From assembly GCA_030550155.1 (NCBI GenBank), contig JAUQPZ010000004.1, positions 1,298-65,297 of the forward strand: a stretch of 64,000 nt of DNA. The letters are read 5' to 3'. The stretch is from Thermoproteota archaeon. Its GTDB lineage: Archaea > Thermoproteota > Nitrososphaeria_A > Caldarchaeales > Calditenuaceae. The notes beneath the pieces are model-generated. The model was not told the origin of the DNA. It made no database searches and was given only the letters and a program-made list of their open reading frames with translations. Within the stretch, counting starts at the first letter, position 1. Every line of letters begins with the position of its first letter. Position numbers and translations under genes: made by a program. Below, piece after piece: positions 16,569 to 61,306 of the stretch.

Positions 16569-16607
16569 AAAGTTTACACCCTATGGCTCGGTTAATGCGA
16601 GACGGTG

Positions 16608-16683: not shown

Positions 16684-16738
16684 TAAAGCCGCTACAGATG
16701 TTGCAAAAAATAAATCTAGCCATCTGGGTGGAGTCTCC

Positions 16739-16966: not shown

Positions 16967-17592
16967 GGGATATCAAGCACAACCAGCCGATATAACGTTT
17001 TTCTTAACTTCACAGGGAGCCCCAACCGATGTGAAGAGTGGAGGCGAGTCGGGTGAAGCTGTGAAGAGTGAAATAATACCCTGAACATGCCTGGGCACCT
17101 CCCCTCAATACGCCAAGTATGAGCCATACATGTGGAGAAACAATACTCTGACGTTTTCTCGGTATTGCTGGTTGTTGCAGAAAAAGAATAGATTCCCAGG
17201 GATTTTCCCCTGACCCCGGCCCCGCTGCCCAAACCCCCCATACATAGGTGAAGGCTGTGGTGAAAGGTGGCTTCACGGTTTCCACAGGCTCCACTGGAAG
17301 CTAAGGGGTTCAATGAAGAATAGGGTGGCTTCACAGTGAAAAGGGTGGATAACGGGTTTCTAGGACTCTGAAGACGTTTAAGAGTCTTCAGGCCAACGAA
17401 TGAACATGGATTCTTGACGAGGACTGTATAGGGAATTCGTAAATTCCTCCCCCACCCCAGCTTTTCGGATGGAAATTAACTAAAATCAACACAAACGGAG
17501 GCTGAAAATAAATAATAAAATAAATAGTTGATAATAAGGTATGATCTTTTCTACAAGCCATCGTTAATTCCTCTCTAAGGGCTACAGTTATT
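16967..17592. other. Probable origin of replication (oriC) upstream of orc1/cdc6
   Basis: 626-bp non-coding region adjacent to Orc1/Cdc6. It holds an ORB-like inverted pair GGTTTCCACAGG/CTCCACTGGAAG at 17277..17300 and related GGTGGCTTCAC repeats at 17267 and 17324. Direct repeats GTGAAGAGTG lie at 17031 and 17061. An 8-bp hairpin CTGAAGAC...GTCTTCAG spans 17368..17391. An AT-rich stretch at 17455..17560 is a candidate unwinding element. Confidence 0.6.
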
Positions 17593-18864: not shown

Positions 18865-20284
18865 GAGGCTTGCCTCTAGAGCCATCGAGCGTGGCTACCA
18901 GCTAACAGCAGAGACCCTAAACAGGCTAATTAAGGTCGAGAACCCTCAGACACTTCTGGACGAGTTCCTGGCTTGGCTCGACGAGAAGAGGATTAACCAG
19001 GTTATTATCGACGAGTCCCTCCTCGGCCTCTTCCTCAGCAGCAGGGTGAAGGAAGCCGAGAAAAGTGTTGGGGAGTCTATCCCCGAGGTTGTCGTGGAGT
19101 CTCCGACCTACGAGGACTTGATGATAGAGGGCGTGGCGGAGGAGCAGAGGCTCTACCTGCTATCAAGGTTCCAGTCAATTAGAAGAGTGTTTGAGGGACG
19201 GGGCCTCAGCTTCAGGCCGGTCAGGGAGCTGATGAAGGAGGGTGGCGAGGGGTACGTTGTGGGCATGGTCCTGAGCATCAGGAGGCGGGACACGCATTTT
19301 CTCATAGAGATGGAGGACCCCGTCGATGTCTGGAACATATTCGTACCTACACGCGATAGAGCGTTAGCCGAGAAGACGGAGTACCTCCTCCAAGACATGG
19401 TCGTCGTCTTCCGTGCGAGGGCGCGGAAGGGGCTGCTCATAGCCAGTGACGTCTATCTGCCCGACATCCCCAGCAGGAGGCAGACATGGAGAGGCCCCGA
19501 CGTAAACGTCTGCATAATCTCTGACATACATGTCGGTAGCAGGAGACATGCGGCGGAAAAGTTCAGAGAGCTCATAGACTGGTTGCGCGGCTCCGAGAAC
19601 GAGGCGGAGAAGACGGTCCTCATGATAATCAATGGGGACCTCGTCGACGGAGTCTACGTCTACCCGGGGCAGGAATCTGAACTGAGCCTAATGTCCTATG
19701 CCGACCAGTTCGCTGAGGCCGCGAAGCTGATTTCAGGAATCCCTGAGCGCCTTAAGGTAATCTATGTCCCCGGAAACCATGAGCCCTGTAGGAGGGCGCT
19801 CCCCCAGCCACCCATACAGGCAAGGTATAGGCAGATACTCAGCCAAGGCAGAGAGCTGGTTTACGCGGGGAACCCTGCCTGGATTAGAGTCGGCGGCATC
19901 AGGATACTAGCATTCCACGGCCAGACGCTGGACGACATCATACAGGCCGGCACGAGGTTCAGCTACTCGACCCTGCGCGAGAGGTCTGGAGAGATGATGG
20001 AGCTGCTGCTCAAGTCCAGGCATCTGGCGCCTGCGATGGGCGTGGTCACCCCGCTACTACCTACGCGGACCGACTACCTGTCGATACCTGAGCCTCCTGA
20101 CCTACTCTGTCTCGGTCATACGCACGTCGCGGCCTTTACAACGTATAAGGGCGTGCAGCTGGTCAACAGCGGCTCTTGGCAGAGGCAGACCAGGATTCAG
20201 GAAAGCATCGGCCTTGAGCCCAGCGTGGGGACGGCGGCCCTATTTAACTTGAACGCGATGTCGATTCGCTTTCTCTCTTTTTAG
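18842..20284 (+). CDS. polB: DNA polymerase II (PolD) small subunit DP1
   Basis: Calcineurin-like phosphoesterase motifs in DP1 order: ISDIHVGS, INGDLVDG, PGNHE, AFHGQ, LGHTH. An N-terminal OB-like region is present. The gene overlaps the cdc6 3' end. Confidence 0.8.
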   Translation: MGVSEAAKRLASRAIERGYQLTAETLNRLIKVENPQTLLDEFLAWLDEKRINQVIIDESLLGLFLSSRVKEAEKSVGESIPEVVVESPTYEDLMIEGVAEEQRLYLLSRFQSIRRVFEGRGLSFRPVRELMKEGGEGYVVGMVLSIRRRDTHFLIEMEDPVDVWNIFVPTRDRALAEKTEYLLQDMVVVFRARARKGLLIASDVYLPDIPSRRQTWRGPDVNVCIISDIHVGSRRHAAEKFRELIDWLRGSENEAEKTVLMIINGDLVDGVYVYPGQESELSLMSYADQFAEAAKLISGIPERLKVIYVPGNHEPCRRALPQPPIQARYRQILSQGRELVYAGNPAWIRVGGIRILAFHGQTLDDIIQAGTRFSYSTLRERSGEMMELLLKSRHLAPAMGVVTPLLPTRTDYLSIPEPPDLLCLGHTHVAAFTTYKGVQLVNSGSWQRQTRIQESIGLEPSVGTAALFNLNAMSIRFLSF

Positions 20285-22591: not shown

Positions 22592-22695
22592 TGGGGCCGG
22601 CCGGATTTGAACCGGCGACCTCCGGGTTTCTTCTGTGCCAGCGCTTCTGAACCAGATCTGGAGCCCGGCGCCCTACCTTGCTAGGCTACGGCCCC
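22592..22695 (-). tRNA. tRNA-Trp (anticodon CCA) with a ~30-nt intron in the anticodon loop
   Basis: Acceptor GGGGCCG/CGGCCCC, T-arm GCCGG-TTCAAAT-CCGGC. Anticodon stem CCGGG ... CCCGG is interrupted after CTCCAG by atctggttcagaagcgctggcacagaagaa. 104 nt total. Confidence 0.7.
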
Positions 22696-41455: not shown

Positions 41456-42997
41456 TTGCTTAAATATTCTACGCGCTCCAGTAAAAATGTGCCTAGTTCG
41501 GCTGGAACCCGTCTTCAGATACTCCTAACAACGCTCCTCATAGCAGTCTCGCTGTCGCTCCCCAACGCATATGCCACAGCCTACAACATCGGCGTGGAGG
41601 ATGCGAGGATTAAGGTTAGACTCACATATCCGCCTGAAGTCGAGATAGGCTCCTGCTTCAACCTCCAGATAGAAGTCACGGCGCTCTCAGCTCTCGACGA
41701 CCTTTACCTCCACCTCAAGATAACATACTTCTATGACTCAGCCAGTCAGACGCTCTTCAACAGCGTGCTGATAAACACGGTCGACGTGGCGTCCCCAGGT
41801 GTTGTCCTATTCAGAAACATAGGCCTCTGCATCCCCTCACCCACCGCAGTCGATCCCTGGCTCGAGGCCAGGCTGACGCTCAAATACCTCATAGACACCA
41901 CCCCGGTCGAGTTCACCAACACGTTCTATTTAAGCACGGTGAGGCGAACCTCCTATGAGAGACTTTCAAGCATGCTCGCCGACGCCAACAGAGAGTTGTC
42001 GCGGCTCAGGTCCGAGGTTGAGAAGCTGAGGTCCGAGGTCGTGTCTCTCAAGACAAGGCTTGACGAGGCTGCATCCAGAGAGGACGCCTTGAAGGCTAAG
42101 ATAGAGGAGCTGACGCGGATAAGAGAGGAACTGGAGAAAAAGGTGAGCGAGCTCCAAGCCATCAAGTCTGACCTAGAGGCGCGGCTCGCCGACCTATCGA
42201 GAAAATACGACAAGTTGCTCACAGAGGACGCGGCCCTCCAAGAGAGACATAAAAGCCTCATGGACAGCTACGCCCTCCTGCAGAAGAGCTACGAGGAGCT
42301 CAGAAGAGACTACGACGCAGTCTCAAGAGACTTGGCATCGACCACAAGCCTCTACAACGACTTAGCGTCCAGACATGAATCGCTGAGGGCGTCCTACGAG
42401 AGCTCGGTCAAGACCGTGGGCCAGCTGCAGGGCTCCCTCTCCGAGCTCGAGAGGCAGAGAGATGTTTTAGAGGCCATGCTCGCCCAAGTCACGGGTGAGA
42501 GCGGATTCTTCAGGAGCGTGGCAGTCGGGCAGGGAGTGGGGTTGGTCGCCTTGGGTGGAGGGGTTGCTGCGTGGATACTGCTTAGAAGGAGGGGGAGGCA
42601 GAGCCCAGCCCAGCAGCCGGTAGCAGCGCCGCCGCCTCCTCCTCCCGCACAGCCAGCCAGCACAGCGCTCAGCAACCCGCCGCCAGCCCAAACAGCTACC
42701 GCGCCTCCAGCCCACCAGCAGCAGCCTGAGGCTCAACCAGAGCAGGACAGCGAGGTCGTTCAGAAGGTCATCTCGGGCAGACGCGTCACAATCCCATCGC
42801 GCCTAGCTGACAGGCTCGGAATCGGGATAGGAGATCACGTAAAGATTGGCCTGCTCGGCGACAAGATAGTTCTGATGCCGATTAGGGCTAACGGAGCATC
42901 TTCTCAGCAGTCTCCTGAGCCTGCCTCACGGTCTCCACACTCTTCAAGAACTCGCGGCGCTCAGACTCATCAAGATCAAGAACAATTATCCCTCTGA
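41456..42997 (+). CDS. Membrane-anchored coiled-coil protein with C-terminal AbrB/MazE/SpoVT-type swapped-hairpin domain
   Basis: Predicted signal peptide (ILLTTLLIAVSLSLPNAYA), then a ~130-aa beta domain. A ~200-aa heptad coiled coil follows (RLRSEVEKLRSEV...). One TM helix (VGLVALGGGVAAWILL) comes next. A Pro/Gln/Ala-rich linker then leads to RRVTIPSRLADRLGIGIGDHVKIGLLGDKIVLMP. Confidence 0.55.
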   Translation: MLKYSTRSSKNVPSSAGTRLQILLTTLLIAVSLSLPNAYATAYNIGVEDARIKVRLTYPPEVEIGSCFNLQIEVTALSALDDLYLHLKITYFYDSASQTLFNSVLINTVDVASPGVVLFRNIGLCIPSPTAVDPWLEARLTLKYLIDTTPVEFTNTFYLSTVRRTSYERLSSMLADANRELSRLRSEVEKLRSEVVSLKTRLDEAASREDALKAKIEELTRIREELEKKVSELQAIKSDLEARLADLSRKYDKLLTEDAALQERHKSLMDSYALLQKSYEELRRDYDAVSRDLASTTSLYNDLASRHESLRASYESSVKTVGQLQGSLSELERQRDVLEAMLAQVTGESGFFRSVAVGQGVGLVALGGGVAAWILLRRRGRQSPAQQPVAAPPPPPPAQPASTALSNPPPAQTATAPPAHQQQPEAQPEQDSEVVQKVISGRRVTIPSRLADRLGIGIGDHVKIGLLGDKIVLMPIRANGASSQQSPEPASRSPHSSRTRGAQTHQDQEQLSL

Positions 42998-45716: not shown

Positions 45717-46145
45717 ATGAGGCCGAGAAGACTAAAGCTGGAAGAACTTCTGAAAATCCTGGTCGAGGAGCATGAGGTGGTCAGGGGACGCCTCACCAGG
45801 CTCCACACACTCCTCGAGCGAGACAAGCACGCCGAGGCGGCGGAGGAGCTCAAGGGATTCAAGCCATACCTCGACCAGCATATAATCGACGAAGAAGCAA
45901 CAGTTTTGAAACTCCTCATCGATTCCTTGGGAAGAGAGGGAGCGACTCGAGCTATACAGGTCTTCCAAGAGCACAGAGAGATACATCAGCTAATATCTGA
46001 GATGCAGGCCATAGCCGAGACGGCCCCCGAGAGGCTTGCCGAGATGAAGAGCAGGCTGGCAGAAATCCTCGAGAGACACTTTAGGGCCGAGGAGACCGAG
46101 GTCTTTCCATGGGCTCTAAAACTCTACAAGGATAAAGGAGGCTAG
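45717..46145 (+). CDS. Hemerythrin-like (HHE cation-binding) domain protein
   Basis: Repeated H/E spacing (HEVV..., HIIDEE, HREIH, HFRAEE) in a 4-helix-bundle-sized 142-aa protein. Confidence 0.55.
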   Translation: MRPRRLKLEELLKILVEEHEVVRGRLTRLHTLLERDKHAEAAEELKGFKPYLDQHIIDEEATVLKLLIDSLGREGATRAIQVFQEHREIHQLISEMQAIAETAPERLAEMKSRLAEILERHFRAEETEVFPWALKLYKDKGG

Positions 46146-46189
46146 ATGAGGTAAACCCGTCGGCCCCCCACCTCACACACTAGGCGGAC

Positions 46190-47038
46190 TCAGACCCAGG
46201 CCGCGAACTCGCAAGAATTAGTGGAGTTGCCGGCGCAGAGCGTCTCTATGCACGAGACATCCTGAGAGCCGTAGGCCTCCCCCAGCAAGCCAGAGACCAC
46301 GCCTCTGAAAAAGTGGCTATTATTACTTCCGCTCCTCCGCTTAGCGCATTCAAAGAGGTCCTTAACAATGATCCTCCAGAACCTCTTCACCGGGTCGCCC
46401 GAGTACCCCTCAACAACACACCAACCAGCTGCCTGCAGCTCGGCCAACGAAATCTGCGCAAGCTCATCAAACGTCAGGCCCGTTTCTTCCCTAACCTGCC
46501 TCGTAAACAGAACACCATATTGCCTACCCAGATCATAGAGGAGAGTGTTTGCAGCCTCCCCCAGCCTCTCCCTCAAATGGTCAATCATGCCGCCCAGAAC
46601 CTCGACCGAGAAAGCCACCGCCCTATTACCGCCCAACAATAATGGGAAGAGATGTTTATTGATGGTTACGCCTCCGGTGAGATACCCATTCACCGATAAG
46701 CCCTCAACGACCCCTATCCCACCCAAACTATTCGCCAGGCCCTCCGCGCTCAGGCCAGAGTCCGTGTAGTCGACGAACAGAGAGACCACGACTTTGCCAT
46801 CCGGAGCCCTTGCAATAGAGCCGTTCACGAACTCGATCGAGCCCCTCGAAGCAATCGACGAGAGCAGCACAATTAGTCCAGCTAAGTCCGATGAAACAGA
46901 CGTCACCTCAGCAATGCTCCTACCGCGCCTAACACAGAGAGAAGGCAGGTAAACAGGTATGCGGAACGAAGACTTCACATTTTTTAACCAGTAGTGCTCG
47001 CCTGGGTCGGATGTCCATGTAGCCGTGGATGTGACCAC
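46190..47038 (-). CDS. V4R (4-vinyl-reductase) domain-containing protein
   Basis: The C-terminal region has the V4R-like pattern (YDLGRQYGVLF ... GWCVVEGYSGD ... CAGNSTNSCEF). 282 aa. Confidence 0.45.
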   Translation of the reverse strand: MVTSTATWTSDPGEHYWLKNVKSSFRIPVYLPSLCVRRGRSIAEVTSVSSDLAGLIVLLSSIASRGSIEFVNGSIARAPDGKVVVSLFVDYTDSGLSAEGLANSLGGIGVVEGLSVNGYLTGGVTINKHLFPLLLGGNRAVAFSVEVLGGMIDHLRERLGEAANTLLYDLGRQYGVLFTRQVREETGLTFDELAQISLAELQAAGWCVVEGYSGDPVKRFWRIIVKDLFECAKRRSGSNNSHFFRGVVSGLLGEAYGSQDVSCIETLCAGNSTNSCEFAAWV

Positions 47039-47109
47039 GGGAATACTACCGCGCGCGTATTTATAAATTTTGTTGATCAGTTAATCTATATTTTTAACGT
47101 GATACCTGT

Positions 47110-48291
47110 TTGTATCTTAAAAGTTTATATAGTGGGCATGCGAACGATATAGCCAGACAAACTTTGACTAACAAGAACCAAGATTTGGCCAAAAATAAGA
47201 AACGCGTAAATCACAACGGAGAGTTCATAAAACTTTTAGACGCCCTAAAGGCCTATGGGCCGCGAAACCTCTCACTCATCTCCATTCTCACCGGAATACC
47301 GCGCGAAACCGTAAGATACAAGGTGAAGAAGCAGCTCAGAGACTTCGGATTCACAGTCCAAATGATGCCCAATTTCTACAAGTTAGGATTAACAAGACTT
47401 TACGCGAAAATTTCATTCACTAGGCATGGAATGAAGATAGCGCAAAAACTATTACACGAACTGGGGATAGGCTCGTATCTATCATACTATTGCAAAGTCG
47501 CCTTCAAAAACGACTATATCGCCATAATAAACCCGCCATCGAAATGGGCGAACAAGTTTAGTGAATTCTTCGAGAGACTGGCGAGCGAAGGAATAGCCAA
47601 GGATTACGAGGTCCAAGAGATTAAAGAAGTAGGATACCCGCACGTGTCTTATCGCCTCTTCAACTTCGAGAAAGGAACATGGAGCCTCAATGAAGAGGAG
47701 TCGCGCACTAGCGAGGGTGTAGTCCTGCAGAGGGCCTCGAGGGATGAAGCAACCAACTATCTGATGGATTCTTCGGACCTCGCGATAATTACTGAATTAC
47801 AGGCGGATGCCTTTAAACCGCTAACAAAAATCTCAGAGATTGTCAATCGGGACCCGAGGCTCCTAAGATATCACTTCCAAGAGCACGTAGTCCGGAAAGG
47901 ACTAATTGCGGGGTATGTGTTAAGCTGGTTCCCAAGGGGCGTTGACGCCCCTCATCTCTCGCGTATCTGGCTCAAGACAGACCCACTCACCACCCAAAAA
48001 GCCATCGAATTCTCTAGGATCACTTCCACGTCACCATTCTGTAAATTCTATCAAATACTAGAAGACGGCACAGGCATGGTCTATATGCTAATTGACAGAC
48101 AATTCACATCTGCTGTCAGACACCTTTCCAAACTATTGATGGAGCATGATATAGGCTGTGAATCCATGATTGTGGACGACGCGACTGCGTTCTCATTGAC
48201 GATGGAGATGTATAAAGAAGGATATGGATGGCTAAAACCAAAACTAGACGACACAATAACAATGACACTACACGAAATGGCCCGTCAATAA
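47110..48291 (+). CDS. Hypothetical tandem-HTH (Lrp/AsnC-like, duplicated) regulator encoded in a low-GC island
   Basis: Two Lrp-like HTH segments (LISILTGIPRETVRYKVKKQL and AIITELQADAFKPLTKISEIVNRDPRLLRYHF), each followed by a ~100-aa domain. Gene GC is visibly lower than its surroundings. Confidence 0.45.
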   Translation: MYLKSLYSGHANDIARQTLTNKNQDLAKNKKRVNHNGEFIKLLDALKAYGPRNLSLISILTGIPRETVRYKVKKQLRDFGFTVQMMPNFYKLGLTRLYAKISFTRHGMKIAQKLLHELGIGSYLSYYCKVAFKNDYIAIINPPSKWANKFSEFFERLASEGIAKDYEVQEIKEVGYPHVSYRLFNFEKGTWSLNEEESRTSEGVVLQRASRDEATNYLMDSSDLAIITELQADAFKPLTKISEIVNRDPRLLRYHFQEHVVRKGLIAGYVLSWFPRGVDAPHLSRIWLKTDPLTTQKAIEFSRITSTSPFCKFYQILEDGTGMVYMLIDRQFTSAVRHLSKLLMEHDIGCESMIVDDATAFSLTMEMYKEGYGWLKPKLDDTITMTLHEMARQ

Positions 48292-48745
48292 ATTCCAACT
48301 TAGAACGGGTCCTTCCCGATTGGCGGTCCCTGGCACTCCATTCTGACCATCACCGCTCTTAGCAGCATTGCTACTGGTTATAAGTCTTTTCCTTAAAAGC
48401 AAATTTTCCGTAAATTATTTGTGAATTAGGAAAAATAGGAGGCGGACTATTTTTGCTTTCTAATGTTTAGAAAAGCGTTTTTCAGTATTATTTAAACTTT
48501 CGCTCACAGTGGGGTTTTCAAGTTTTATTGGCATTGGCCATAGAACTGTCAATTAGCGGAGAATGTTCGTCGGATTAACTTCAAGTCCGACACATATCAC
48601 GTTGTACTCAGTATCCAATTTACGGATTTTTGTTTTGGGAAACCAATATTTGTGCGAAGAACGTATGTTTTAGAGACTATAAGGCTCGATTACGTCTGTT
48701 AGTAAAAGTTTTTTAAAGTGTCCCGCTCATCAGCCTTAGAAAACT

Positions 48746-49945
48746 GTGGATATGGTGTTAATCAGGTTTAACTTCGGTCTCACTCGCGACTTCTGGATTC
48801 TAATGCTCTCCCTCTTGCTGATTAATATGTTCGGGCTGGGTTTCAGCCCGTTTCTGCCTTACTTTCTTCGCGAGATAGGTGCCAGCATCTCAGAGGTTGC
48901 GTTTGTCTTAGCTTTCTCAAGGATAGCTTATACCTTGTTGCTTAGTGTGGGTGGCTTAGCAGGCGACCTGGTTGGTAGGAAGGCGCCGATGATTCTGGGC
49001 CCGGTTATAGTGGGCGCGTCGTATATTGTTCTCGCGGGAGCTAGGTCTTGGAGCGACGCAATCTTGCCGCTCACCTTTTCCTTACTGCCCGGCGCATTTA
49101 TCGCCCCTGCAGTCTTCGCATACATTGGTGACGTTGTCGAGCCGCTTAAATACGGTAGAGCATTTGGCATCTACTATTCGATCATGAATATCAGCGCTAT
49201 TCTCGGCTATCTGATAGTTGGCTCCTTGGTGGATAGATTTGGCTACAGTTTTAGCATATTAGCTGTCGGTGTCGTAGCGATACTTGGCGCTTTCACCAGA
49301 GTCTGGCTTCGAGAGACTAGAAGGGCCGTGAAAGAAATAGCGGTCCTGGTATACCTAAGGGAGGCCTACGGATATCTGAGACAGAGGGTCGTGCTCTTAC
49401 TGGTTATCTTACTAAGCCTCTACATGGGGTTGGCTAGTGTTTTGGACTCTGTTATCTTTCCGCTCTGGGCTAGAGAGATAGTCTCGCTGAAAGAGGTTGA
49501 CTTCTCCATCATTCTCTCTTTAGAGGCGGCTATCTACTCGATGCTGTCTCCGATAGGCGGCCGCCTAGCCGAGTCAAGGACTCTTTGGATCTATCTCTCA
49601 GCCCTCGAGCTCCTAATCAAGATACCGGCTCTGCTACTTCTCTCACATGCGACGAGCTTCTTACAGCTGCTCGCAGTCCTATTACTTAATTCTGGATTAG
49701 CGATATTTGTCATTCCAGGTCTCAATTCGCGGCTTTCAGCAGCGCTTAGCAGCGCGCATAGGGGAGCCATCTGGGGGATGCAGCAGTCCTTTATCTCGGC
49801 TGCAACCATCTGCTTCACATTGATTGGGGGCTATGCCTGGGAGTCTCTGGGAAATGTAATCACGGTCCATATCTTTCTTTTCTACCCTGTCGTGATGGTT
49901 TTGCTTCTTGTTGTTTTGGCCGGTCTAGAGCGGCGAGGAGCCTAA
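48746..49945 (+). CDS. Major-facilitator-superfamily transporter
   Basis: 12 TM, MFS motif GDLVGRK after TM2. 399 aa. Confidence 0.7.
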   Translation: MDMVLIRFNFGLTRDFWILMLSLLLINMFGLGFSPFLPYFLREIGASISEVAFVLAFSRIAYTLLLSVGGLAGDLVGRKAPMILGPVIVGASYIVLAGARSWSDAILPLTFSLLPGAFIAPAVFAYIGDVVEPLKYGRAFGIYYSIMNISAILGYLIVGSLVDRFGYSFSILAVGVVAILGAFTRVWLRETRRAVKEIAVLVYLREAYGYLRQRVVLLLVILLSLYMGLASVLDSVIFPLWAREIVSLKEVDFSIILSLEAAIYSMLSPIGGRLAESRTLWIYLSALELLIKIPALLLLSHATSFLQLLAVLLLNSGLAIFVIPGLNSRLSAALSSAHRGAIWGMQQSFISAATICFTLIGGYAWESLGNVITVHIFLFYPVVMVLLLVVLAGLERRGA

Positions 49946-50058
49946 ATTTTCCGGGTGAGTGAGGAATCAACATATTGTTTGTGAAAAGGGCAACAGCTAA
50001 TCAGCAAGACAAATATTCAGAGGATTCTTGGACTGGGTGGTGATTAACAGATAAAAGG

Positions 50059-54225: not shown

Positions 54226-57051
54226 GTGGCGGGTTTGTCTGAGGGCGAGGAGCTTCTCTGCCGGCCGGTTCTCGAGGCGGTGAGGGAGAGGTTCGGCGGC
54301 CTTGCGGAGACTCAGAGAAGCGCGCTCCCTCACATTATTAGCGGCGAGAATGTTCTCATAGTCTCGCCTACGGGTACGGGTAAGACTGAGGCCGCGCTCC
54401 TCCCCATATTCAGCATGGTTCTCACAAACCCCGAGGTGCGGCCAGTCTCAGCCCTCTATATCACGCCCCTGCGAGCCCTCAACAGAGACCTGCTAGACAG
54501 ACTTGAATGGTGGTCCCGCCGCCTCGACATCTCAATCTCCGTCAGACACGGCGACACGTCTCAGCGCGAGAGGAGGATGCAGGCACTAAGCCCCCCACAT
54601 ATACTGATAGCTACTCCCGAGGCCCTCCAATCACTACTCATAGGCCGCGTCGTAAGGAGAAGCCTCTCCAATGTCAGGTGGGTTGTCGTTGACGAGGTTC
54701 ACGAGCTGGCCACGGATAAGAGAGGCGCCCAACTTGCCGTCGCTCTTCAGAGGCTCAGACGGATAACGGGGAGGCAGTTCCAGCTGGTGGGGCTCTCAGC
54801 CACCGTGGGCGAGCCCGAGGAGGTTGCCAGGTTCCTTGTGGGGCCGGCTGGAAGATTTGTGGTTGTGGAGACCAAGATGCCGCGGGCGCTAGAGGTTGAT
54901 GTAGTCTTCCCCGAGCCGGAGCGAGCTGATTTCGAGATGGGCGAGTCGATAGGCGTCGCCCCAGACGTTGCGGCTAGAATGAGGACAATACTGGAGCTGG
55001 TCTCGAGGCACTCCTCCACACTGATATTCACCAATACGCGGCCACTGGCTGAGGCTCTCGCGAACAGGTTCAAGGCATGGGACGAGGCGCTCCCAGTCTC
55101 GATTCACCACGGCTCCCTCTCGAGGGACCACAGGGTTAGGGCTGAGAGAGAGCTGAAGTATGGCGAGGTGCAGGGATTGATTTGCACGTCGAGTCTCGAG
55201 ATGGGTATTGATGTGGGGCGAGTAGACCTCTGCATACAGTATAACTCGCCTAGGGAGGTGACGAGGCTGATTCAAAGGGTTGGGAGGAGCGGGCACAGGA
55301 TAGGCGGGGTTGCTCGCGGAGTGGTCCTCGTGATGGACTCGGATGACGCTCTGGAGGCTATTGTAATCTCGCGGCGTGCAAGGTCCGGCGAGCTTGAGCC
55401 GGTAAGGGTGGTGAAGAACAGCCTGGACGTCGCGATGCACCAAGTGGCAGGTCTCCTCCTCGAATACGGCAGAATCATGCGGGACGAGGTTACAGCCCTG
55501 CTCAGAAACACCTACAACTTTGCAACACTCGAGGAAAGCGACCTCGACTCACTTCTAAGATACATGGAAACGCTAGGCATTGCGAGGGTGCTGGATGGAG
55601 TAGTCGCGAAGCCAATAAGGGCGAGGAGACTGATAGAATATTATTTCGACAACCTCTCCATGATCCCTGAGGAGAAGCAGTATCTCGTGGTTGAGGAAGC
55701 GACCGGCGAGCCCGTCGGCATACTGGACGAGGCTTTCGTCGCTGAGTATGGCGAGGTGGGAACGCGGTTTATTCTAGGTGGTAGGGCGTGGCTGATACTG
55801 AACCTCTCGGGGACAAGAATCTATGTTGCTAGGCTGAAGGAGGGTGAGGGAGCTGTGCCATCATGGGTTGGCGACGAGATTCCAGTACCTCTCGAGGTGG
55901 CCATGGAGGTTGGCGCCATTAGGAGAAGGTTCGTCGAGTTGAGGGCCAGCGGCGTGGGCGCTGAGGAGGCGTCCATGGTCTTGGCGGCTGAGTATGGCGT
56001 GTCATCAGCCTTCATGAGGCGCTCTCTCAGAGAGGTTGAGAAGCACATGGCCACGAGCATCCCGGTCCCCACCGATAGGCAGATAGTCGTTGAAGAAGCA
56101 GGTGAATACGTTGTCCTCCATGTGACAGGCGGACTCAGAATCAACAGAACACTCGCACGCCTACTCACGGTCCACCTCGCCGAGAGGATTGGTGCGCCTG
56201 TCTCAGCGCAGTCAGACCCCTACAGGGTGGTCCTGAAGTCTAGGAATCTTAACGCAGTCGATGTAGTTAAGGCCCTTCCGGAGCTAAGAGATGAGGAGCT
56301 GCTGAGGAGGGCTGTCGAGTCTTCAGGAGTTTTCAGGAGAAGGCTGGTCCACGTTGCCAGGAAGATGGGTGTCGTGGGTAAGGATGTGAGTCTCCTAGAC
56401 GTTAGCGCTCAGATGCTTGTCGAGTCTCTAAGAGGTACACCCGCCTATCTCGAGGCCCTAAGATTCACCATCTTCACAGACTACGACTGGGACGGGGCCA
56501 AGACTCTCCTTGAGAAAATACTTGGTGGCGAGATTAGGGCGGAGACGTGCAGCCTTGAAAGGCCAAGCCCCCTGGCCTACCTCACAATCAACAGGTACCA
56601 GTACGAGTATGAGACATACACGCCTGAGAGGATGCACAGGCTCTTGGTAAATGCTGTCAGGGCTAGGATAAACAGTGAGCTGGTGGTGCTTGCATGTCTA
56701 GACTGCCGTAAATATCTCGAGACGGTTGAGGTGGGCGAGATCGATAGTAAGCCTGTCTGCCCGACCTGCTCCTCCCAACGCATAGGAATAGTCGCGACCG
56801 CCGGACGCGAGGAGGTTGAGCGCGTTATGCGTGGAAAGACAGCCGAGTCTAGAAGATACTGGAGGGAGGTTGAGAAAACCGCCCCCTTGGTCGAGAGGTA
56901 TGGAAAGACTGCGGCCTTCCTTCTCTCAGCCCGCGGAGTCAGCGTCAAGGAGGCTGAGCAGCTTTTGAGCGAAGAGCCTCGAATCTCACCCAAGCTGATA
57001 GAGAGGATTATAGAGCTCGAGAAGAAGGCCCTTCTAAAAGAGTTCAGCTAG
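54226..57051 (+). CDS. lhr: Lhr-type large superfamily-2 helicase (Lhr-core with C-terminal zinc-finger domain)
   Basis: Walker A SPTGTGKTEAA, DEVH box (VVVDEVHEL), and SAT, QxxGRxGR (LIQRVGRSGH) motifs. A C-terminal CxxC...CPTC ribbon is present. 941 aa. Confidence 0.8.
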   Translation: MAGLSEGEELLCRPVLEAVRERFGGLAETQRSALPHIISGENVLIVSPTGTGKTEAALLPIFSMVLTNPEVRPVSALYITPLRALNRDLLDRLEWWSRRLDISISVRHGDTSQRERRMQALSPPHILIATPEALQSLLIGRVVRRSLSNVRWVVVDEVHELATDKRGAQLAVALQRLRRITGRQFQLVGLSATVGEPEEVARFLVGPAGRFVVVETKMPRALEVDVVFPEPERADFEMGESIGVAPDVAARMRTILELVSRHSSTLIFTNTRPLAEALANRFKAWDEALPVSIHHGSLSRDHRVRAERELKYGEVQGLICTSSLEMGIDVGRVDLCIQYNSPREVTRLIQRVGRSGHRIGGVARGVVLVMDSDDALEAIVISRRARSGELEPVRVVKNSLDVAMHQVAGLLLEYGRIMRDEVTALLRNTYNFATLEESDLDSLLRYMETLGIARVLDGVVAKPIRARRLIEYYFDNLSMIPEEKQYLVVEEATGEPVGILDEAFVAEYGEVGTRFILGGRAWLILNLSGTRIYVARLKEGEGAVPSWVGDEIPVPLEVAMEVGAIRRRFVELRASGVGAEEASMVLAAEYGVSSAFMRRSLREVEKHMATSIPVPTDRQIVVEEAGEYVVLHVTGGLRINRTLARLLTVHLAERIGAPVSAQSDPYRVVLKSRNLNAVDVVKALPELRDEELLRRAVESSGVFRRRLVHVARKMGVVGKDVSLLDVSAQMLVESLRGTPAYLEALRFTIFTDYDWDGAKTLLEKILGGEIRAETCSLERPSPLAYLTINRYQYEYETYTPERMHRLLVNAVRARINSELVVLACLDCRKYLETVEVGEIDSKPVCPTCSSQRIGIVATAGREEVERVMRGKTAESRRYWREVEKTAPLVERYGKTAAFLLSARGVSVKEAEQLLSEEPRISPKLIERIIELEKKALLKEFS

Positions 57052-57664
57052 CTTGCTCACCGCCCTCTTCTGGCCCGGTCTTCTCCTGAGCCTGCCTTAA
57101 CTCTCCGTTACTGCTAAGTGAAGCAAAAGCTTTGAGGAGCTCCTGTCTATCAACCTCCACAAGCGTCCTCCACCCAACCGAGACCACCCCCTCCTCGGTC
57201 CTAGCCAAGTAGCCCCTCCTTGCGAGCCTCTCCAAGGCAGCCTCAACCCTCCACCTGGGATACTTAGTTTCAAGCATCTCGACGACCTCTTTCTCGGAGG
57301 CGCTCCCATTCTTCGCGAGCAGATATGCCAAGGTCGCAGAGAGTATTGCGAGCTCGTCGAGGCTGTAGCCTAGCGTCTGGATGTCTGAGAGCGTGAGCGG
57401 GTCTGAGAGGACTATGTAGAACCTGGCCCTGTCTAGGTCGTCTGGCCCCGCGTCCGGGTCGGGGACGAGCTTGACCCTCAGCCCGATCTGCTTGAGCCTA
57501 GAGTCGAGGGAGTTGATTATCTTCGGGAAGTTTTTCCCGAGCCTCCTCCTAAGCTCCCAACCCCTAACACCTGGAAGCCTATGCCCCGAGGCGAGGATCA
57601 ATGCTACGGCCTGGGCCATCTTCTTCTCCAGCTTACTCAGCTCCTCAGCGCCCACACTCTTCAC
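57044..57664 (-). CDS. scpB: ScpB-like protein (tandem winged-helix; kleisin-interacting subunit)
   Basis: 206 aa with two wHTH modules. The N-terminal AQAVALILASGHRL resembles the ScpB EALLF.SGEPL motif. Its start overlaps the scpA stop. Confidence 0.55.
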   Translation of the reverse strand: MKSVGAEELSKLEKKMAQAVALILASGHRLPGVRGWELRRRLGKNFPKIINSLDSRLKQIGLRVKLVPDPDAGPDDLDRARFYIVLSDPLTLSDIQTLGYSLDELAILSATLAYLLAKNGSASEKEVVEMLETKYPRWRVEAALERLARRGYLARTEEGVVSVGWRTLVEVDRQELLKAFASLSSNGELRQAQEKTGPEEGGEQAS

Positions 57665-58392
57665 CTGCCTACAGTTATGGCTAGAGAGGTGGTCCTCGGC
57701 TCTTCAGACGGAGCCTTGGCCGCCCTTATCTTGATCTCTCTGCTTAACGTGTTTATTCTCACCTCAACCTCACCCCTCGATATGAGGTAGCTCAGCAGAT
57801 AGGCTCGGGCAGCCTTCTCCCCCTCACCCCTACTCCTCACAAAATCCCAATAATCAATCCAGCCGTCGATCGACGCGAGCTCCGCGAGCAGCCCCCTAAG
57901 CTCCTCACTTATCTGGCTCTCAATAGCCGTGTAGACCCCCGGCCTCTCCACGGCGAGTTTAAGTTCTTCGGCCATAGCTACTCCCCGGGTGGGCCTTGAG
58001 AGGAAGTGCTGATAACCCCTCAACAACAGGTCCATAGAGATTTGCTCAAGCCTAATTATCGGTCTCCAAGCCTGGAGAAGAGCCGCCACTAGCATCCTCG
58101 CATCCGACCCCAGTATCTTGGAATAGATCATGCCGGCATCTATGAAGAGGGAGGAGGCTCTCTCCCTGATCCATCTTTGCTGGAGGCCTAGCACGATGGA
58201 GACCCTGTATAGTGTCTCGGCGTCAAGCGTGATGGTCTCGACGTCCCTCTCCCTCTCGATAATCTCTCGCAGCCGCGCCAGAAGTGAGGAGACGTCAACG
58301 CTGAATGGGTCAAGCCTTCTTGACTCTATCTCTCCAAGTATGGATATCATTCTTAGAAGCTCTTCCCTCGGAATTTTAATGCTCTTGCTCAC
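57661..58392 (-). CDS. scpA: ScpA-like kleisin
   Basis: N-terminal LDPFSVDVSSLLARLREII matches the ScpA FDGPLDLL...I.I motif. There is a C-terminal winged-helix-like region. 243 aa. Its start overlaps the SMC-like gene stop. Confidence 0.6.
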   Translation of the reverse strand: MSKSIKIPREELLRMISILGEIESRRLDPFSVDVSSLLARLREIIERERDVETITLDAETLYRVSIVLGLQQRWIRERASSLFIDAGMIYSKILGSDARMLVAALLQAWRPIIRLEQISMDLLLRGYQHFLSRPTRGVAMAEELKLAVERPGVYTAIESQISEELRGLLAELASIDGWIDYWDFVRSRGEGEKAARAYLLSYLISRGEVEVRINTLSREIKIRAAKAPSEEPRTTSLAITVGR

Positions 58393-60127
58393 TCTTCTCC
58401 ACCGATGTGGTAACGAAGGAGGACCCGGCCACGTTCTGGACTATGATGAGGTTGAAGCCGTCGGTGATGGGGAGCCTACCCGGGGTGATGAAGAGGAACT
58501 GCGTCGAGGGATAGGATCTGGCTATCTCAACAAGTATCTGGGTAACCATCTCCCTGTTCAGGGGGTCTAGGTGGACGTCGAACTCGTCCACAGCTCTTAT
58601 GGGTGAGCGGACGTAGCTCTGGAGTGCAAGTAGAAAGGCAATCGTCGCGACAACCCTCTCACCGCCGCTGTGCGTATGGGCGTCAACCATCATGGGCTCC
58701 ATGCCCCTGAACCCTGCCAACAGCTCGAGGCTTGCGCTCGCAGGGTCCTCGATTCCTCTGATCCTGATGACTCCTCTTCCACCTACAGAGCTGAGAAGCC
58801 TCTGATACACCGGATTAATATCGTCTATAATCTCCTTGAGCTTGTCCCTCCATATCTGCCTCCTCTTCTCGACCTCCTCCATCGCCTTCTTTACATTCTC
58901 CTCAACCTGTCTAGCCCTTAGCTCCACTTCCCTGAATCTCGAGTCAGCTAGGAAATACATGGTCTCGGCGTCGGGGATAACCTTTCCAAGCGAGGCAATC
59001 TCCAGCATAGTCAGCCTCAAATCCTCGAGCACGGTGGACGGCTCCCTCTCAGTCTCCACTTCAGCGCCCTTCTCAGAGGCCGCGGCCCTCCGCTCCTCCA
59101 ACTCCTTAAGAAGGCCGTCAATCTCGGACCGAGCCGCCGCCACCTCCCTCTCAAGGCTCGACACCCTAAATCTCCTGACACCCTCCTCCACAGCCACCTT
59201 CACGAGACGTTCTATCAGCTCCAATATCTCGCCCGGCTGAGCGGCCTCGTAGAGCCTCTGCCGAATCCTATCCCTGAAAGCGCCGGCCTCAGCCCCATAG
59301 GCGGCTGCCTCCTCCTCAAGCCGCGCCTTCTCCACCAGCATCCTCTCAAGGGCAAGCCTCCTCCTCTCAAGGCTCTTCCGAACCTGGTGGACGAGGCTCC
59401 ACGCGTATTCAACCTCCAGCAACCCCTTCCTCTCCTCAAGCTCCCTAAGCTGCTGAAGCTTCTGAAGCTCCCTCCTCCAATACTCAACCGCCTCGCCGGC
59501 CTCGGAGAGCAGACGCTTCACGGAAGCTTCCTCAGACCTCAGGTTGTTCAGCCTACTCTCAGCCTCGAGAAGCCTCTCCCTGAGGTGTGAGAGGCCTACG
59601 GCATCCTCCATCGCCTTCAGCTTCTCCATGTTGTCGCGGGCCGCGAAGCTCTCAATCATGTTTTGATGCATAATTACTAGGGCGTTGTTAGGGTTTATTC
59701 CCAGCCTCCTCAGAAGCTCCTCGAGCTCAGCCTTCGGAGTGAACCTGTTATTGACGTAGTGCCAGTATTCTCCGCTCTTCTTTATGTATCGCGTAATAGT
59801 TATCTCCTCAGACTTGACCGATGAGAGGGGCCTCTCACCATCAATCGGGGAGTTATCCAGGACCACGGTCAGCCTGGCCGCATCCCTACCTCTCCTAATG
59901 AGGTCGCTCAGCCTCTGACCCCTCTCGGTATAAGTCTGGCCCAGCGCAACCGCCAAGCCTAGAAGAATGGATGACTTGCCCGCGCCGTTGGGCCCGGTTA
60001 TCACGTTGAGCCCCGGCTCGAGCTTAATCCTCGAATACTCGTGAGACATGAAGTTCTCGAGGATTACCTCGCGTATATGCGTGGGCCTAGCCTCGGCGCC
60101 TATCTGTCCAACCCTAGTCCTCGCCAA
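58376..60127 (-). CDS. Short SMC/Rad50-like ABC-ATPase (583 aa; no hinge or zinc hook recognised)
   Basis: N-terminal head FMSHEYSRIKLEPGLNVITGPNGAGKSSIL, a central ~300-aa heptad-rich region, then the C-terminal signature HSGGERVVATIAFLLAL and Walker B AVDEFDVHLD. It is the first gene of an operon with scpA and scpB. Confidence 0.65.
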   Translation of the reverse strand: MARTRVGQIGAEARPTHIREVILENFMSHEYSRIKLEPGLNVITGPNGAGKSSILLGLAVALGQTYTERGQRLSDLIRRGRDAARLTVVLDNSPIDGERPLSSVKSEEITITRYIKKSGEYWHYVNNRFTPKAELEELLRRLGINPNNALVIMHQNMIESFAARDNMEKLKAMEDAVGLSHLRERLLEAESRLNNLRSEEASVKRLLSEAGEAVEYWRRELQKLQQLRELEERKGLLEVEYAWSLVHQVRKSLERRRLALERMLVEKARLEEEAAAYGAEAGAFRDRIRQRLYEAAQPGEILELIERLVKVAVEEGVRRFRVSSLEREVAAARSEIDGLLKELEERRAAASEKGAEVETEREPSTVLEDLRLTMLEIASLGKVIPDAETMYFLADSRFREVELRARQVEENVKKAMEEVEKRRQIWRDKLKEIIDDINPVYQRLLSSVGGRGVIRIRGIEDPASASLELLAGFRGMEPMMVDAHTHSGGERVVATIAFLLALQSYVRSPIRAVDEFDVHLDPLNREMVTQILVEIARSYPSTQFLFITPGRLPITDGFNLIIVQNVAGSSFVTTSVEKSEQEH

Positions 60128-60316: not shown

Positions 60317-60754
60317 ATGGAGGTCGACGTCAAGACCGCAATAGAGCGCTTCAGAATGTTCATCATCTACAACACCTGTCTCAGCCTGATTCCGAAGGGG
60401 TATCTGAAGGATACGACTGTTTTCCCGGAGAGGGACCCGGACAAGGGCGAGATCTACGTTGAGGCCGCCAGCAAGATAGAGCTGGCCAAGATCAGGGATA
60501 TCAAGTTCGTCAAGGTTGCAGATGTCCTGGGCGTGATTTACAGGTCTAAAACGGGGAACACGAGCCTCAAATGGAGACAGATAAAAGGAAACATCGGGAG
60601 GCTGACGGGCGTGGCCTCCCCAAACTCCATAGTCAACCTACTCGAGGCAAAGGTCCTGACCAGAGAATACCTAGAAGAGTATCTGAAGCAGAGAGCCGAG
60701 GCTCCGAGGACAGAGAATCAGGAGACGCAGGGAACAACCACAGCATCACAGTAA
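60317..60754 (+). CDS. Hypothetical protein, 145 aa
   Basis: ORF divergent from the SMC-like gene. No recognisable motif. Confidence 0.3.
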   Translation: MEVDVKTAIERFRMFIIYNTCLSLIPKGYLKDTTVFPERDPDKGEIYVEAASKIELAKIRDIKFVKVADVLGVIYRSKTGNTSLKWRQIKGNIGRLTGVASPNSIVNLLEAKVLTREYLEEYLKQRAEAPRTENQETQGTTTASQ

Positions 60755-60793: not shown

Positions 60794-61306
60794 TTACCGC
60801 TCCCCTGATCTAGCCAGTTGGAGACGGCATTTGGGGCAGGGTTCCTCTCCCTTAAAATCCGTGTCGAGGATACTGTTGCTGAAGAACATAACGCATCGGG
60901 GGTTGGTGCAGTGTTTGAGTCCGAGGAGGTGTCCTATCTCGTGCCCTACCTCCTTCCTGAGCCTGGAAAGGAATTTTCCGAGCTGGGAGTCTCTCAGCCT
61001 GAATATTGAGACGACCGCGGCGTTCTTGAATGCGAGGCCGAAGCAGAAGTAATAGTCGTTGAAGTATATGTCGAGGCCCGTGACGTGCAGTCGGAGGACA
61101 TGGGGCTCCGTGTCTTTTGAAAGGGTCTCGACCAGTCTAAGCGCCTCTACCTGGCCCCGCAGAGTATTGATGTAGGACTTGGCGGGGTCCTCCTCAAGCT
61201 CCAGCTCCACAGAGCTAAGACCATACAGACGTAAAGCGGTCTCGGCAGCCACCCGCCTCTCCGACCCCAGATTCTTAGGAGAGGAGACGACCAGCCTTCC
61301 AGACAA
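60794..61306 (-). CDS. amzA: Archaemetzincin (M54 zinc metallopeptidase)
   Basis: HEIGHLLGLKHC then CVM...CPKC fits the archaemetzincin HExxHxxGx3Cx4CxMx17CxxC signature. 170 aa. Confidence 0.8.
   Translation of the reverse strand: MSGRLVVSSPKNLGSERRVAAETALRLYGLSSVELELEEDPAKSYINTLRGQVEALRLVETLSKDTEPHVLRLHVTGLDIYFNDYYFCFGLAFKNAAVVSIFRLRDSQLGKFLSRLRKEVGHEIGHLLGLKHCTNPRCVMFFSNSILDTDFKGEEPCPKCRLQLARSGER

Follow-up and report, generated by a model that had tools for sequence, protein, structure and literature searches.

SMC complexes are thought to require long arms and a hinge in order to entrap and extrude DNA. How SMC5/6 contributes to repair is also under debate: it may extrude loops or clamp DNA locally. 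The 64,000 nt stretch of archaeal DNA analysed here (the window) raises the question of what an SMC protein might do with neither a hinge nor long arms. On its minus strand, three overlapping reading frames encode proteins of 583, 243 and 206 aa (Table 1). A preliminary description of the locus gave these genes the same coordinates, strand and lengths that we find. It proposed that the products form either a minimal condensin or a Wadjet/MksBEF-like module, with partner subunits of the ScpA and ScpB type. Our analysis points elsewhere. The operon probably encodes an archaeal SMC5/6-related complex, naturally truncated, that consists of a single SMC ATPase, an Nse4-type kleisin and an Nse1/Nse3-type kite and works as an ATP-gated clamp.

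The locus and the ATPase head

From the kleisin start to the SMC stop the two frames share 17 nt (GTGAGCAAGAGCATTAA); the kite frame likewise begins within the last 4 nt of the kleisin gene (GTGA). The neighbouring Lhr gene lies on the opposite strand. As the preliminary description had it, the operon and the Lhr gene meet tail-to-tail; their 3′ ends share 8 nt. The surroundings form a conserved housekeeping context: genes for an isocitrate-dehydrogenase-like protein, seryl-tRNA synthetase, eIF2alpha and DNA ligase. A search of the 64 kb window for a full-length smc found no other SMC gene. There is not a single cysteine in the ATPase, the kleisin or the kite.

Table 1. Positions of the genes, motifs and modelled domains. 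Nucleotide positions are those of the window.
Feature	Residues	Nucleotides	Strand	Remarks
SMC5/6-related ATPase, short-arm, hinge-less		58376..60127	minus	583 aa, TTG start; Pfam SMC_N 6e-32
Walker A / P-loop GPNGAGKSS	45-53	59969..59995	minus	invariant in alignment A3
Q-loop MHQNMIE	153-159	59651..59671	minus	invariant in alignment A3
Antiparallel coiled-coil arm	180-446	58790..59590	minus	AlphaFold2; return helix with joint-like breaks (aa 354-362, 380-386)
Arm apex, 4-residue turn QPGE in place of hinge or zinc hook	294-297	59237..59248	minus	AlphaFold2
ABC signature HSGGER	486-491	58655..58672	minus	S487, G488, G489, E490 and R491 invariant (alignment A3)
Walker B / D-loop DEFDVHLD	514-521	58565..58588	minus	invariant in alignment A3
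FITPG, SMC5-type motif at the H-loop position	546-550	58478..58492	minus	aligned with Smc5
Nse4-like kleisin		57661..58392	minus	243 aa, GTG start
Kleisin C-terminal winged-helix domain	~153-224	57721..57936	minus	sole confidently modelled part, pLDDT 75-91
Nse1/Nse3 (MAGE)-like kite subunit		57044..57664	minus	206 aa, GTG start; NCBI call is 203 aa from the next GTG
Lhr-family helicase		54226..57051	plus	941 aa; Pfam DEAD, Helicase_C, WH_Lhr, DEAD_assoc

The ATPase has an ABC-type head that is split between the N and C termini. The Walker A, Q-loop, signature and Walker B motifs are all present, and the two halves fold together in an AlphaFold2 model. The FITPG sequence aligns to ‘QYFLITPKLL’ of yeast Smc5 and ‘QYFFITPKLL’ of human SMC5; long relatives of the protein have ITPG, ITPS or LTPQ at this position. 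In a sequence search of the PDB, the ATPase matched yeast Smc5 best (1.6e-41), followed by Smc6 (5.6e-27) and then archaeal and bacterial Smc heads (~1e-21). The order was the same when heads only were searched (Smc5 126 bits, Smc6 93 and canonical Smc 71). On this similarity ranking, the closest counterparts of the head appear to be eukaryotic Smc5 and Smc6, ahead of the canonical Smc of archaea and bacteria.

This ranking bears on the idea of a minimal condensin, in which a shortened Smc-ScpAB would replace the canonical chromosome-folding complex. The parts list, an SMC protein with a kleisin and a tandem winged-helix protein, fits that idea, and the best-scoring NCBIfam models for the ATPase are indeed SMC_prok models. 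However, SMC_prok_A reached 159 bits against an equivalog cut-off of 729 bits, and the head comparison favours Smc5 and Smc6. The identity of the partner subunits, considered below, also counts against it.

Absence of the distal arm and hinge

A canonical SMC arm is ~50 nm long, with ~300-350 residues per strand, and carries a central hinge dimerisation domain. The protein described here has the same split ABC head but neither the hinge nor the ~50 nm arm. In the AlphaFold2 model (pLDDT 85.5; 87-96 along the arm), an ascending helix (residues 180-293) is followed by a turn (294-297) and by return helices at 298-353, 363-379 and 387-446. The arm totals ~267 residues, close to the ~300 residues of coiled coil estimated in the preliminary description, and the 114 residues of the ascending strand correspond to ~17 nm. 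A Pfam search of the ATPase gave no SMC_hinge match, and the apex is modelled as a four-residue turn. CxxC was absent from all 51 short-form representatives. The earlier reading of the protein as an SMC-type ATPase lacking hinge and hook was correct.

Comparison with long relatives locates what is missing. Residues 27-246 of the ATPase align to residues 1-219 of these proteins and residues 285-580 to residues 722-1026. The long relatives have ~500 extra residues at the apex, comprising the distal arm and hinge, that the short form lacks. What remains is an intact, conserved head of the SMC5/6 type with its ‘neck’ (the head-proximal coiled coil) and a joint-like break; the distal arm, hinge and zinc hook are absent. 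The top Foldseek match of the model was 5xei, the ‘Smc head + coiled coil + joint’ of Pyrococcus yayanosii (1.6e-21). Both have a head and a neck, and in both the C-terminal helix is interrupted in a joint-like way. In 5xei a full-length Smc was truncated in the laboratory, whereas the short form is a natural, conserved gene product that has kept a kleisin and a kite.

The protein is half the canonical SMC length. The preliminary description allowed that it might be a fragment of a gene disrupted by a frameshift; an assembly error could likewise have left a remnant of a full-length smc. We retrieved the family from genomes with two peptide patterns, one being the Q-loop sequence MHQNMIE. An identical (100%) ATPase is encoded by a Nitrososphaerota MAG. 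Dozens of homologues, with identities down to 52%, are 574-590 aa long, which is far more agreement than chance would give. Of the 53 nearest clusters at 50% identity, 50 have lengths of 548-685 aa. Across 80 species-representative genomes the SMC gene is a single uninterrupted frame, the longest having at most 674 stop-free codons, and the SMC-kleisin-kite gene order is kept in 72 species. The short form is conserved in Caldarchaeales, Methanomethylicia and Bathyarchaeia. Because the lengths are conserved across independent assemblies and 80 genomes, a frameshift does not explain the short form. With both head halves present and folding together, the chance that the gene is a broken remnant is negligible.

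Relatives with the same head type differ at the arm tip. Bathyarchaeota proteins of 1028-1047 aa have a CxxC hook, and P0347 and P0372 have hinge-like domains. Pfam SMC_hinge detects no hinge in most long relatives, and their apex types were read from sequence (a CxxC in P0321 and P0324, a globular segment in P0347). Among the 51 short-form representatives, all length variation is an insertion after residue 297 (mean 51 residues). Conservation is also lowest at the apex, where mean column identity is ~0.26-0.29 compared with 0.7-0.8 in the head.

The same subunits could instead build a closed ring with translocase activity. The short arms would pair at their tips, in the manner of RecN or of a hook without zinc, and the resulting ~17 nm ring would entrap DNA and move along it in small steps. 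Given that relatives sharing the head type carry modules dedicated to dimerisation at their apex, pairing there may matter, and the arm is confidently modelled as a rigid coiled coil. The poor conservation of the apex, its standing as the sole site of length variation and its lack of a cysteine or globular element speak against the ring. We consider the closed ring unlikely and favour the clamp, although the arm tips might still dimerise, and a small ring would then be restored.

Other short-arm or hinge-less SMC-like ATPases are RecN, Rad50/ASRP (ClsN, Sph) and Lamassu LmuB. RecN, ASRP and LmuB are ~550-650 aa long and have a coiled coil without an SMC hinge. None of these families is known to act together with a kleisin and a kite. 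RecN, ASRP, Rad50 and arcadin-4 were each rejected as identities for the ATPase (NCBIfam 35 vs 408, 44 vs 300, 65 vs 700 and 30 vs 860 bits, respectively; no cysteine or zinc hook).

Partner subunits and published operons

Single-sequence searches were too weak to classify the kleisin and the kite, and family alignments were required. The 243 aa sequence itself had no direct Pfam match, and searches of PDB and NCBIfam with it gave nothing usable. At the family level, Pfam Nse4_C was matched by 17 of 34 members (best 1e-6), and none of the 34 matched Pfam ScpA at E<=0.1. The family profile placed yeast Nse4 first in the PDB (0.0098), with human EID3 also at the top. In the AlphaFold2 model (overall pLDDT 58) the N-terminal domain scored ~50. 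Foldseek searches with the C-terminal domain ranked the SMC head-bound Scc1-C, ScpA-C and Brn1-C first, with probabilities of 0.92-1.0 and weak E-values of ~0.07-0.13. On family-level similarity, we assign the protein as a predicted Nse4-type kleisin. [quoted passage not shown]

The third protein gave Pfam matches of its own to SMC_Nse1 (0.0013) and MAGE (0.0015), both under the gathering scores; PDB and NCBIfam searches with it likewise stayed below threshold. In its family, 20 of 36 members matched SMC_Nse1 and 19 of 36 matched MAGE; Pfam ScpB was matched by none of the 36 at E<=0.1. The top PDB match of the family profile was the MAGE/Nse3 chain 7dg2_C. Judged by these profiles, the protein belongs to the tandem winged-helix ‘kite’ superfamily. 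Here too the superfamily proposed earlier holds, and the ScpB label gives way to Nse1 and MAGE. The kite has no RING, because it has no cysteine.

An operon of this kind has been tabulated before. Van Hooff et al. (bioRxiv 10.1101/2024.01.07.573240) list the orthologous operon of a sister organism, Calditenuaceae archaeon HR02, as an example of an archaeal “SMC5/6-related” operon, in which BEHE01000017.1_4, _3 and _2 are the SMC5/6-related SMC, the Nse4-related kleisin and the Nse1,3-related kite. They put the HR02 ortholog of the ATPase in their SMC5,6-related clade. Locus L003 of our genome survey is on the same HR02 contig, and its SMC is 86% identical to the ATPase of the window. The operon described here matches the archaeal SMC5/6-related operons of Yoshinaga and Inagaki (2021, PMC8665677) and van Hooff et al. 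in its three gene families and in their order. It also shares their TACK range and, judging from HR02, co-existence with a condensin-like operon.

In HR02, that second set comprises a condensin-like SMC, a kleisin and an ScpB-like protein, encoded on BEHE01000012.1 (van Hooff et al., bioRxiv 10.1101/2024.01.07.573240). A sister genome with its own condensin-like operon, together with partners that are Nse4-like and Nse1/3-like instead of ScpA and ScpB, an Smc5/6-type head and a low SMC_prok_A score, largely refutes the minimal condensin. We regard it as highly improbable.

Both earlier studies (PMC8665677 and bioRxiv 10.1101/2024.01.07.573240) took a phylogenetic approach to the proteins, in which coiled-coil columns were dropped and protein length was restricted to 500-1500 aa. 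Their searchable text and supplements are silent on the absence of the hinge and most of the arm, on hook and hinge alternatives and on an Lhr neighbour. We found no description of a short or hinge-less archaeal SMC5/6-type protein in the literature searched, in which subscription journals are thinly covered. Hence the gene set is already catalogued, and its stripped-down, hinge-less architecture has apparently not been described previously.

Eukaryotic SMC5/6 and bacterial Wadjet restrict extrachromosomal DNA. The operon could, by analogy, be a Wadjet/MksBEF- or Lamassu-type defence module that restricts plasmids or viruses and whose nuclease was lost or never present. PADLOC matches of the ATPase to mad3 (5e-30) and LmuB (6e-22), and of Lhr to BrxHI (1e-104), are in line with this. 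However, these matches are generic to SMC_N and the Lhr fold, the kleisin and kite have no PADLOC match, and there was no JetA, JetB, JetD, LmuA or LmuC signal. No nuclease gene was found among the neighbours in the window or among the conserved neighbours. Unlike a mobile defence island, the locus has housekeeping synteny and occurs in many species of several archaeal classes. The Wadjet-like module of the preliminary description finds no footing in these results, and a defence role is very unlikely.

The Lhr neighbour and a proposed clamp

An Lhr homologue adjoins the operon in 49 of the 80 species and is convergent with it in 47 of these. In 31 of the 49, the 3′ ends overlap or are at most 60 nt apart. 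The adjacency extends to Methanomethylicia, where the SMC is only 40% identical, and is not seen in Wolframiiraptor/Geocrenenecus-type loci or in Bathyarchaeota short-form loci. Convergent genes are not co-transcribed. We consider the Lhr helicase a probable functional partner of the SMC complex; conservation of the convergent gene suggests joint action with the helicase in the processing of replication forks or DNA damage.

Among the closest known systems is the eukaryotic Smc5/6 core (Smc5-Smc6-Nse4-Nse1-Nse3), which has a similar head with the ITP motif, an Nse4-type kleisin and a MAGE/Nse1-type kite. Whereas the eukaryotic complex pairs Smc5 with Smc6 and Nse1 with Nse3, the archaeal operon encodes a single SMC and a single kite. 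It further differs in having no RING in the kite, no hinge and an arm of ~17 nm compared with ~50 nm. Neither Nse2, Nse5 nor Nse6 was seen in the operon. In the structure of yeast Smc5/6 bound to DNA, the engaged heads lie below the DNA and the necks at its sides, with Nse4 as scaffold and Nse3 on top (PMC9191643). All of these clamp parts are retained in the archaeal gene set.

Because the retained parts are exactly those that form the DNA clamp in the yeast structure, we propose a clamp mechanism. The ATPase would presumably be a homodimer, its subunits joined only by ATP-dependent head engagement and the kleisin. The kleisin would bridge the two, its N-terminal helices contacting one SMC at the neck and its C-terminal winged helix contacting the other at the cap. 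With a kite dimer on the middle of the kleisin, the likely stoichiometry would be 2:1:2. Such a complex would most likely clamp double-stranded DNA or DNA junctions in an ATP-gated manner, and would not be a long-armed loop extruder. It would probably act in DNA repair with Lhr, at replication forks or DNA damage, and, to judge from the HR02 table, beside a separate canonical Smc-ScpAB condensin encoded elsewhere.

A bolder proposal treats the arm tip as an exchangeable accessory in a single SMC5/6-type family, whose members have a hinge, a Rad50-like CxxC hook or no tip module at that site, and takes the hinge-less form to be a natural, self-sufficient, clamp-only machine. In this proposal the head, neck, Nse4-like kleisin and kite would not extrude loops; they would form an ATP-gated clamp on DNA or junctions, coupled to Lhr in fork repair. 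We offer this full combination tentatively, as possible though doubtful.

That the hinge-less form is conserved in several archaeal classes, with kleisin and kite kept, argues that the module of head, neck, kleisin and kite has a function of its own. Eukaryotic SMC5/6 interplays with fork-remodelling helicases. The conserved pairing with Lhr parallels this and ties an SMC5/6-type complex to a repair helicase in a concrete way that can be tested. The core is ~120 kDa per half-complex, a size that suits structural and single-molecule work, and is probably thermostable, since it comes from genomes related to hot-spring MAGs. If the clamp-only reading is true, the DNA clamp would be the ancestral functional core of SMC5/6, and the archaeal complex would be a small, thermostable model for it. 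The finding also refines the picture of how eukaryotic SMC5/6 arose from TACK and Asgard archaeal ancestors.

An uninterrupted short smc gene in a three-gene operon

The operon encodes an SMC-type ATPase, a kleisin and a kite protein. The three open reading frames are exactly those of the preliminary description, in length and in position. The SMC and kleisin genes overlap by 17 nt and the kleisin and kite genes by 4 nt. At its end, the kite gene overlaps the 3' end of the Lhr gene by 8 nt, so the overlapping, tail-to-tail layout was read correctly. The matches of the ATPase identify the window as archaeal: a Nitrososphaerota MAG encodes an ATPase 100% identical to that of the window, and among named organisms the closest relatives are Calditenuaceae/Caldarchaeales ('Aigarchaeota').

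Could the 583-aa protein be a fragment of a disrupted gene, as had been considered? Homologues from independent assemblies are 574-590 aa long, at identities from 89% down to 52%. We also searched 1.84 billion cluster representatives exhaustively; 50 of the 53 best clusters (E 1e-181 to 1e-88) contained proteins of 548-685 aa, and only three were long (1016-1047 aa). In 80 species-representative genomes, one reading frame covers the SMC gene, and its stop-free length never exceeds 674 codons. Judged by this conservation of length, the short smc gene is not broken.

Features of the window, in order of position
Feature	Coordinates	Strand	Remark
T2SSE-type ATPase (935 aa), then T2SSF-type membrane protein	3127-7396	+	
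tRNA	16608-16683	-	upstream of Orc1/Cdc6
14-nt direct repeat, two copies	17266 and 17324		upstream of Orc1/Cdc6
Orc1/Cdc6	17593-18864	+	
PolD small subunit	18842-20284	+	directly after Orc1/Cdc6
tRNA match, 104 nt	22592-22695	-	
513-aa protein	41456-42997	+	
Low-GC stretch	46000-50000		GC 0.46-0.50; background ~0.56
Lhr-family helicase gene	54226-57051	+	ORF
Kite, 206 aa	57044-57664	-	ORF
Kleisin, 243 aa	57661-58392	-	ORF
SMC-type ATPase, 583 aa	58376-60127	-	ORF
145-aa ORF	60317-60754	+	divergent from SMC gene
Archaemetzincin gene	60794-61306	-	upstream of operon

The divergent 145-aa ORF has no match in Pfam (default threshold), NCBIfam or PADLOC. At 33-34 of 80 related loci, both this ORF and the archaemetzincin gene are conserved on the upstream side of the operon. 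Elsewhere in the window, the repeat upstream of Orc1/Cdc6 reads GGTGGCTTCAC[G/A]GT and accompanies a local GC dip to 0.526. The interval 16600-20284 is possibly a replication origin, some 38 kb from the SMC operon. The second tRNA probably contains an intron, since the match covers 104 nt. The T2SSE-type ATPase is unusually long; it and its T2SSF-type neighbour probably form a pair for assembling an archaeal type IV pilus or archaellum-like structure. The only clear domain of the 513-aa protein is a C-terminal MazE/AbrB-like fold.

An SMC5/6-type head on a short arm

The ATPase carries the SMC-type motifs previously noted: Walker A (GPNGAGKSS), signature (HSGGER) and Walker B (DEFDVHLD), and also a Q-loop (MHQNMIE). 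It matches Pfam SMC_N (6e-32) and reaches the cut-off of no curated prokaryotic NCBIfam family. The scores were 159 bits for SMC_prok_A (cut-off 729), 65 for Rad50 (700), 44 for ASRP (300), 35 for RecN (408) and 30 for arcadin-4 (860). Among all solved structures, the top sequence matches were yeast Smc5 (1.6e-41), human SMC5 (1.8e-29) and yeast Smc6 (5.6e-27), with the Pyrococcus and Bacillus Smc heads ranking below them (~1e-21). Because coiled coil could inflate full-length scores, a second search used only the two halves of the head, and the ranking was unchanged: Smc5 (126 bits), Smc6 (93), canonical archaeal Smc (71), then SMC2 and SMC3. The ATPase also contains a 'QFLFITPG' motif; the aligned segments are 'QYFLITPK' in yeast Smc5 and 'QYFFITPK' in human SMC5.

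In the AlphaFold2 model of the ATPase (pLDDT 85.5), the N-terminal head lobe leads into a helix (residues 180-293), a 4-residue turn (QPGE, 294-297) and return helices (298-353, 363-379 and 387-446) that run to the C-terminal lobe. The predicted arm measures ~114 residues or ~17 nm; it is interrupted in a joint-like manner and bears no domain at its apex. Thus, the earlier observation of no recognisable hinge agrees with the model. A CxxC hook, likewise reported absent, is impossible in these proteins because the ATPase, kleisin and kite all lack cysteine. The best structural match to the model is an engineered Pyrococcus fragment ('Smc head + coiled coil + joint'), and Smc5/6 head regions rank next.

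Residues 27-246 and 285-580 of the ATPase align with residues 1-219 and 722-1026 of long relatives; the distal arm and apex of the long forms, ~500 residues, are therefore missing from the short protein. The nearest long relatives, from Bathyarchaeota (1028-1047 aa; homologous proteins P0321 and P0324), have a central 'KPQI[KR]CDKCGS' with a Rad50-like CxxC. Another member, of 982 aa and more distant, is globular and hinge-like in its middle, and an 835-aa member matches Pfam SMC_hinge; homologues P0347 and P0372 are the long relatives with these two tips on the SMC5/6-type head. Plain turn, CxxC and hinge-like apices are all seen among these relatives, so three kinds of arm tip occur within one head family. 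The combination of a CxxC zinc-hook motif, an SMC5/6-type head and partners of the kleisin and kite types may be undescribed.

The main rival to a complex closed only at its heads and kleisin is that the arm tips might pair, restoring a small ring; the variability of the apex speaks against it. Among 51 short representatives, it is the least conserved region, none has a CxxC, and all length differences are apex insertions after residue 297 (mean 51 residues).

Partners, distribution and the Lhr neighbour

The 243-aa protein has no Pfam, NCBIfam or PDB match with its own sequence. Its family comprises 50 homologues from Caldarchaeales and Bathyarchaeota; of 34 aligned members, 17 match Pfam Nse4_C (best 1e-6), and at E<=0.1 ScpA has no match among them. 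The PDB matches of the family profile are headed by yeast Nse4 (0.0098) and human EID3, and ScpA C-terminal domains come lower, after a few weak unrelated matches. The AlphaFold2 model has a poor N-terminus, as expected for a kleisin modelled without its SMC partner, but its C-terminal winged helix is modelled with confidence (pLDDT 75-91); the closest folds to that domain are the SMC-head-bound Scc1-C, ScpA-C and Brn1-C. For the 206-aa protein, the matches to SMC_Nse1 and MAGE are weak; of 36 kite-family members, 20 match SMC_Nse1, 19 match MAGE and none matches ScpB. The best solved match of the kite profile is a MAGE/Nse3 chain (7dg2_C), and NCBI names some members 'MAGE domain-containing protein'. 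These family-level Pfam and PDB profile matches place the partners in the Nse4 and Nse1/Nse3 branches of the kleisin and kite superfamilies. The preliminary description, which had called them ScpA- and ScpB-like, was correct on superfamily and wrong on branch, so its interpretation is partly supported. Accordingly, a minimal condensin was rejected: the partners are of Nse4 and Nse1/3 type and the head is nearer Smc5/Smc6.

A search of GTDB species genomes found 164 relatives, and we surveyed the loci of the best 80. These are from Caldarchaeales (Calditenuaceae, Caldarchaeum, Terraquivivens, Wolframiiraptor, Geocrenenecus and others), Methanomethylicia (including two complete Methanosuratincola genomes), 'Thermoprotei' MAGs and one Hadarchaeales MAG. 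Bathyarchaeota have a 647-aa form with the same partners. The order SMC-kleisin-kite is kept at 72 loci. At three of the remaining eight the contig ends; the other five are without a detectable kite or without both partners. A short SMC is present with no kite detected in the sequenced flanks at L012, L014 and L017 (Calditenuaceae/Caldarchaeales), and with neither partner detected there at L079 and L080 ('Thermoprotei'). Lineage-specific losses or strongly diverged partners are possible at these five loci.

An Lhr homologue adjoins the operon at 49 of the 80 loci and is convergent at 47 of those; the 3' ends overlap or lie <=60 nt apart at 31. The pairing is kept in Methanosuratincola and one 'Thermoprotei' MAG, where SMC identity is only 40-45% and no other neighbour from the window is conserved. 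No Lhr adjoins the operon in Wolframiiraptor/Geocrenenecus-type or Bathyarchaeota loci. The surroundings are housekeeping genes, not a defence island, and PADLOC found no Wadjet or Lamassu partner signal. Hence, a Wadjet/MksBEF-like module, the other earlier proposal, was also rejected.

Relation to catalogued complexes and a proposed clamp

'SMC5/6-related' archaeal SMCs were defined by Yoshinaga & Inagaki, who found 80 homologues, 66 of them from TACK archaea (PMC8665677). Since that 2021 study admitted lengths of 500-1500 aa and left out coiled-coil columns, short forms would have escaped notice. Van Hooff et al. described two complete operons in many TACK and Asgard archaea: one condensin-like, with a ScpB-like kite, and one SMC5/6-related, with a Nse4-related kleisin and Nse1/3-like kite (bioRxiv 10.1101/2024.01.07.573240). 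For the sister organism Calditenuaceae archaeon HR02, their example table gives BEHE01000017.1_4/_3/_2 as the SMC5/6-related set and BEHE01000012.1_19/_18/_17 as the condensin-like set. Survey locus L003 is on the same contig as the former, and its SMC is 86% identical to that of the window. On this sequence identity, the window's genes are orthologous to the published example, and the complex belongs to a recently catalogued kind. The preliminary description had asked for a search for a second, full-length smc; HR02 has one, in a separate operon, and no second SMC was found within the window.

Neither arm length nor hinge loss is mentioned in the main text or searchable supplements of either paper. 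The short-armed build without a hinge, the apex that is interchangeable within the family and the conserved association with Lhr are apparently undescribed, and merit a specialist's attention.

The features in hand are an intact, conserved ATPase head, a short arm of neck and joint that bears no domain at its apex, a kleisin whose winged helix is of the cap-binding type, an Nse1/3-type kite and a conserved Lhr neighbour. We infer an ATPase homodimer that would be held only by ATP-driven head engagement and a neck-to-cap kleisin bridge, on which a kite dimer would be placed. By analogy, head, neck, kleisin and kite would correspond to parts of the yeast Smc5/6 DNA clamp. Having neither hinge nor long arms, the complex is unlikely to extrude large loops. 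We propose an ATP-gated clamp that would close on duplex or branched DNA and cooperate with Lhr in processing forks or damage. Such a clamp would operate beside canonical condensin, which folds the chromosome.
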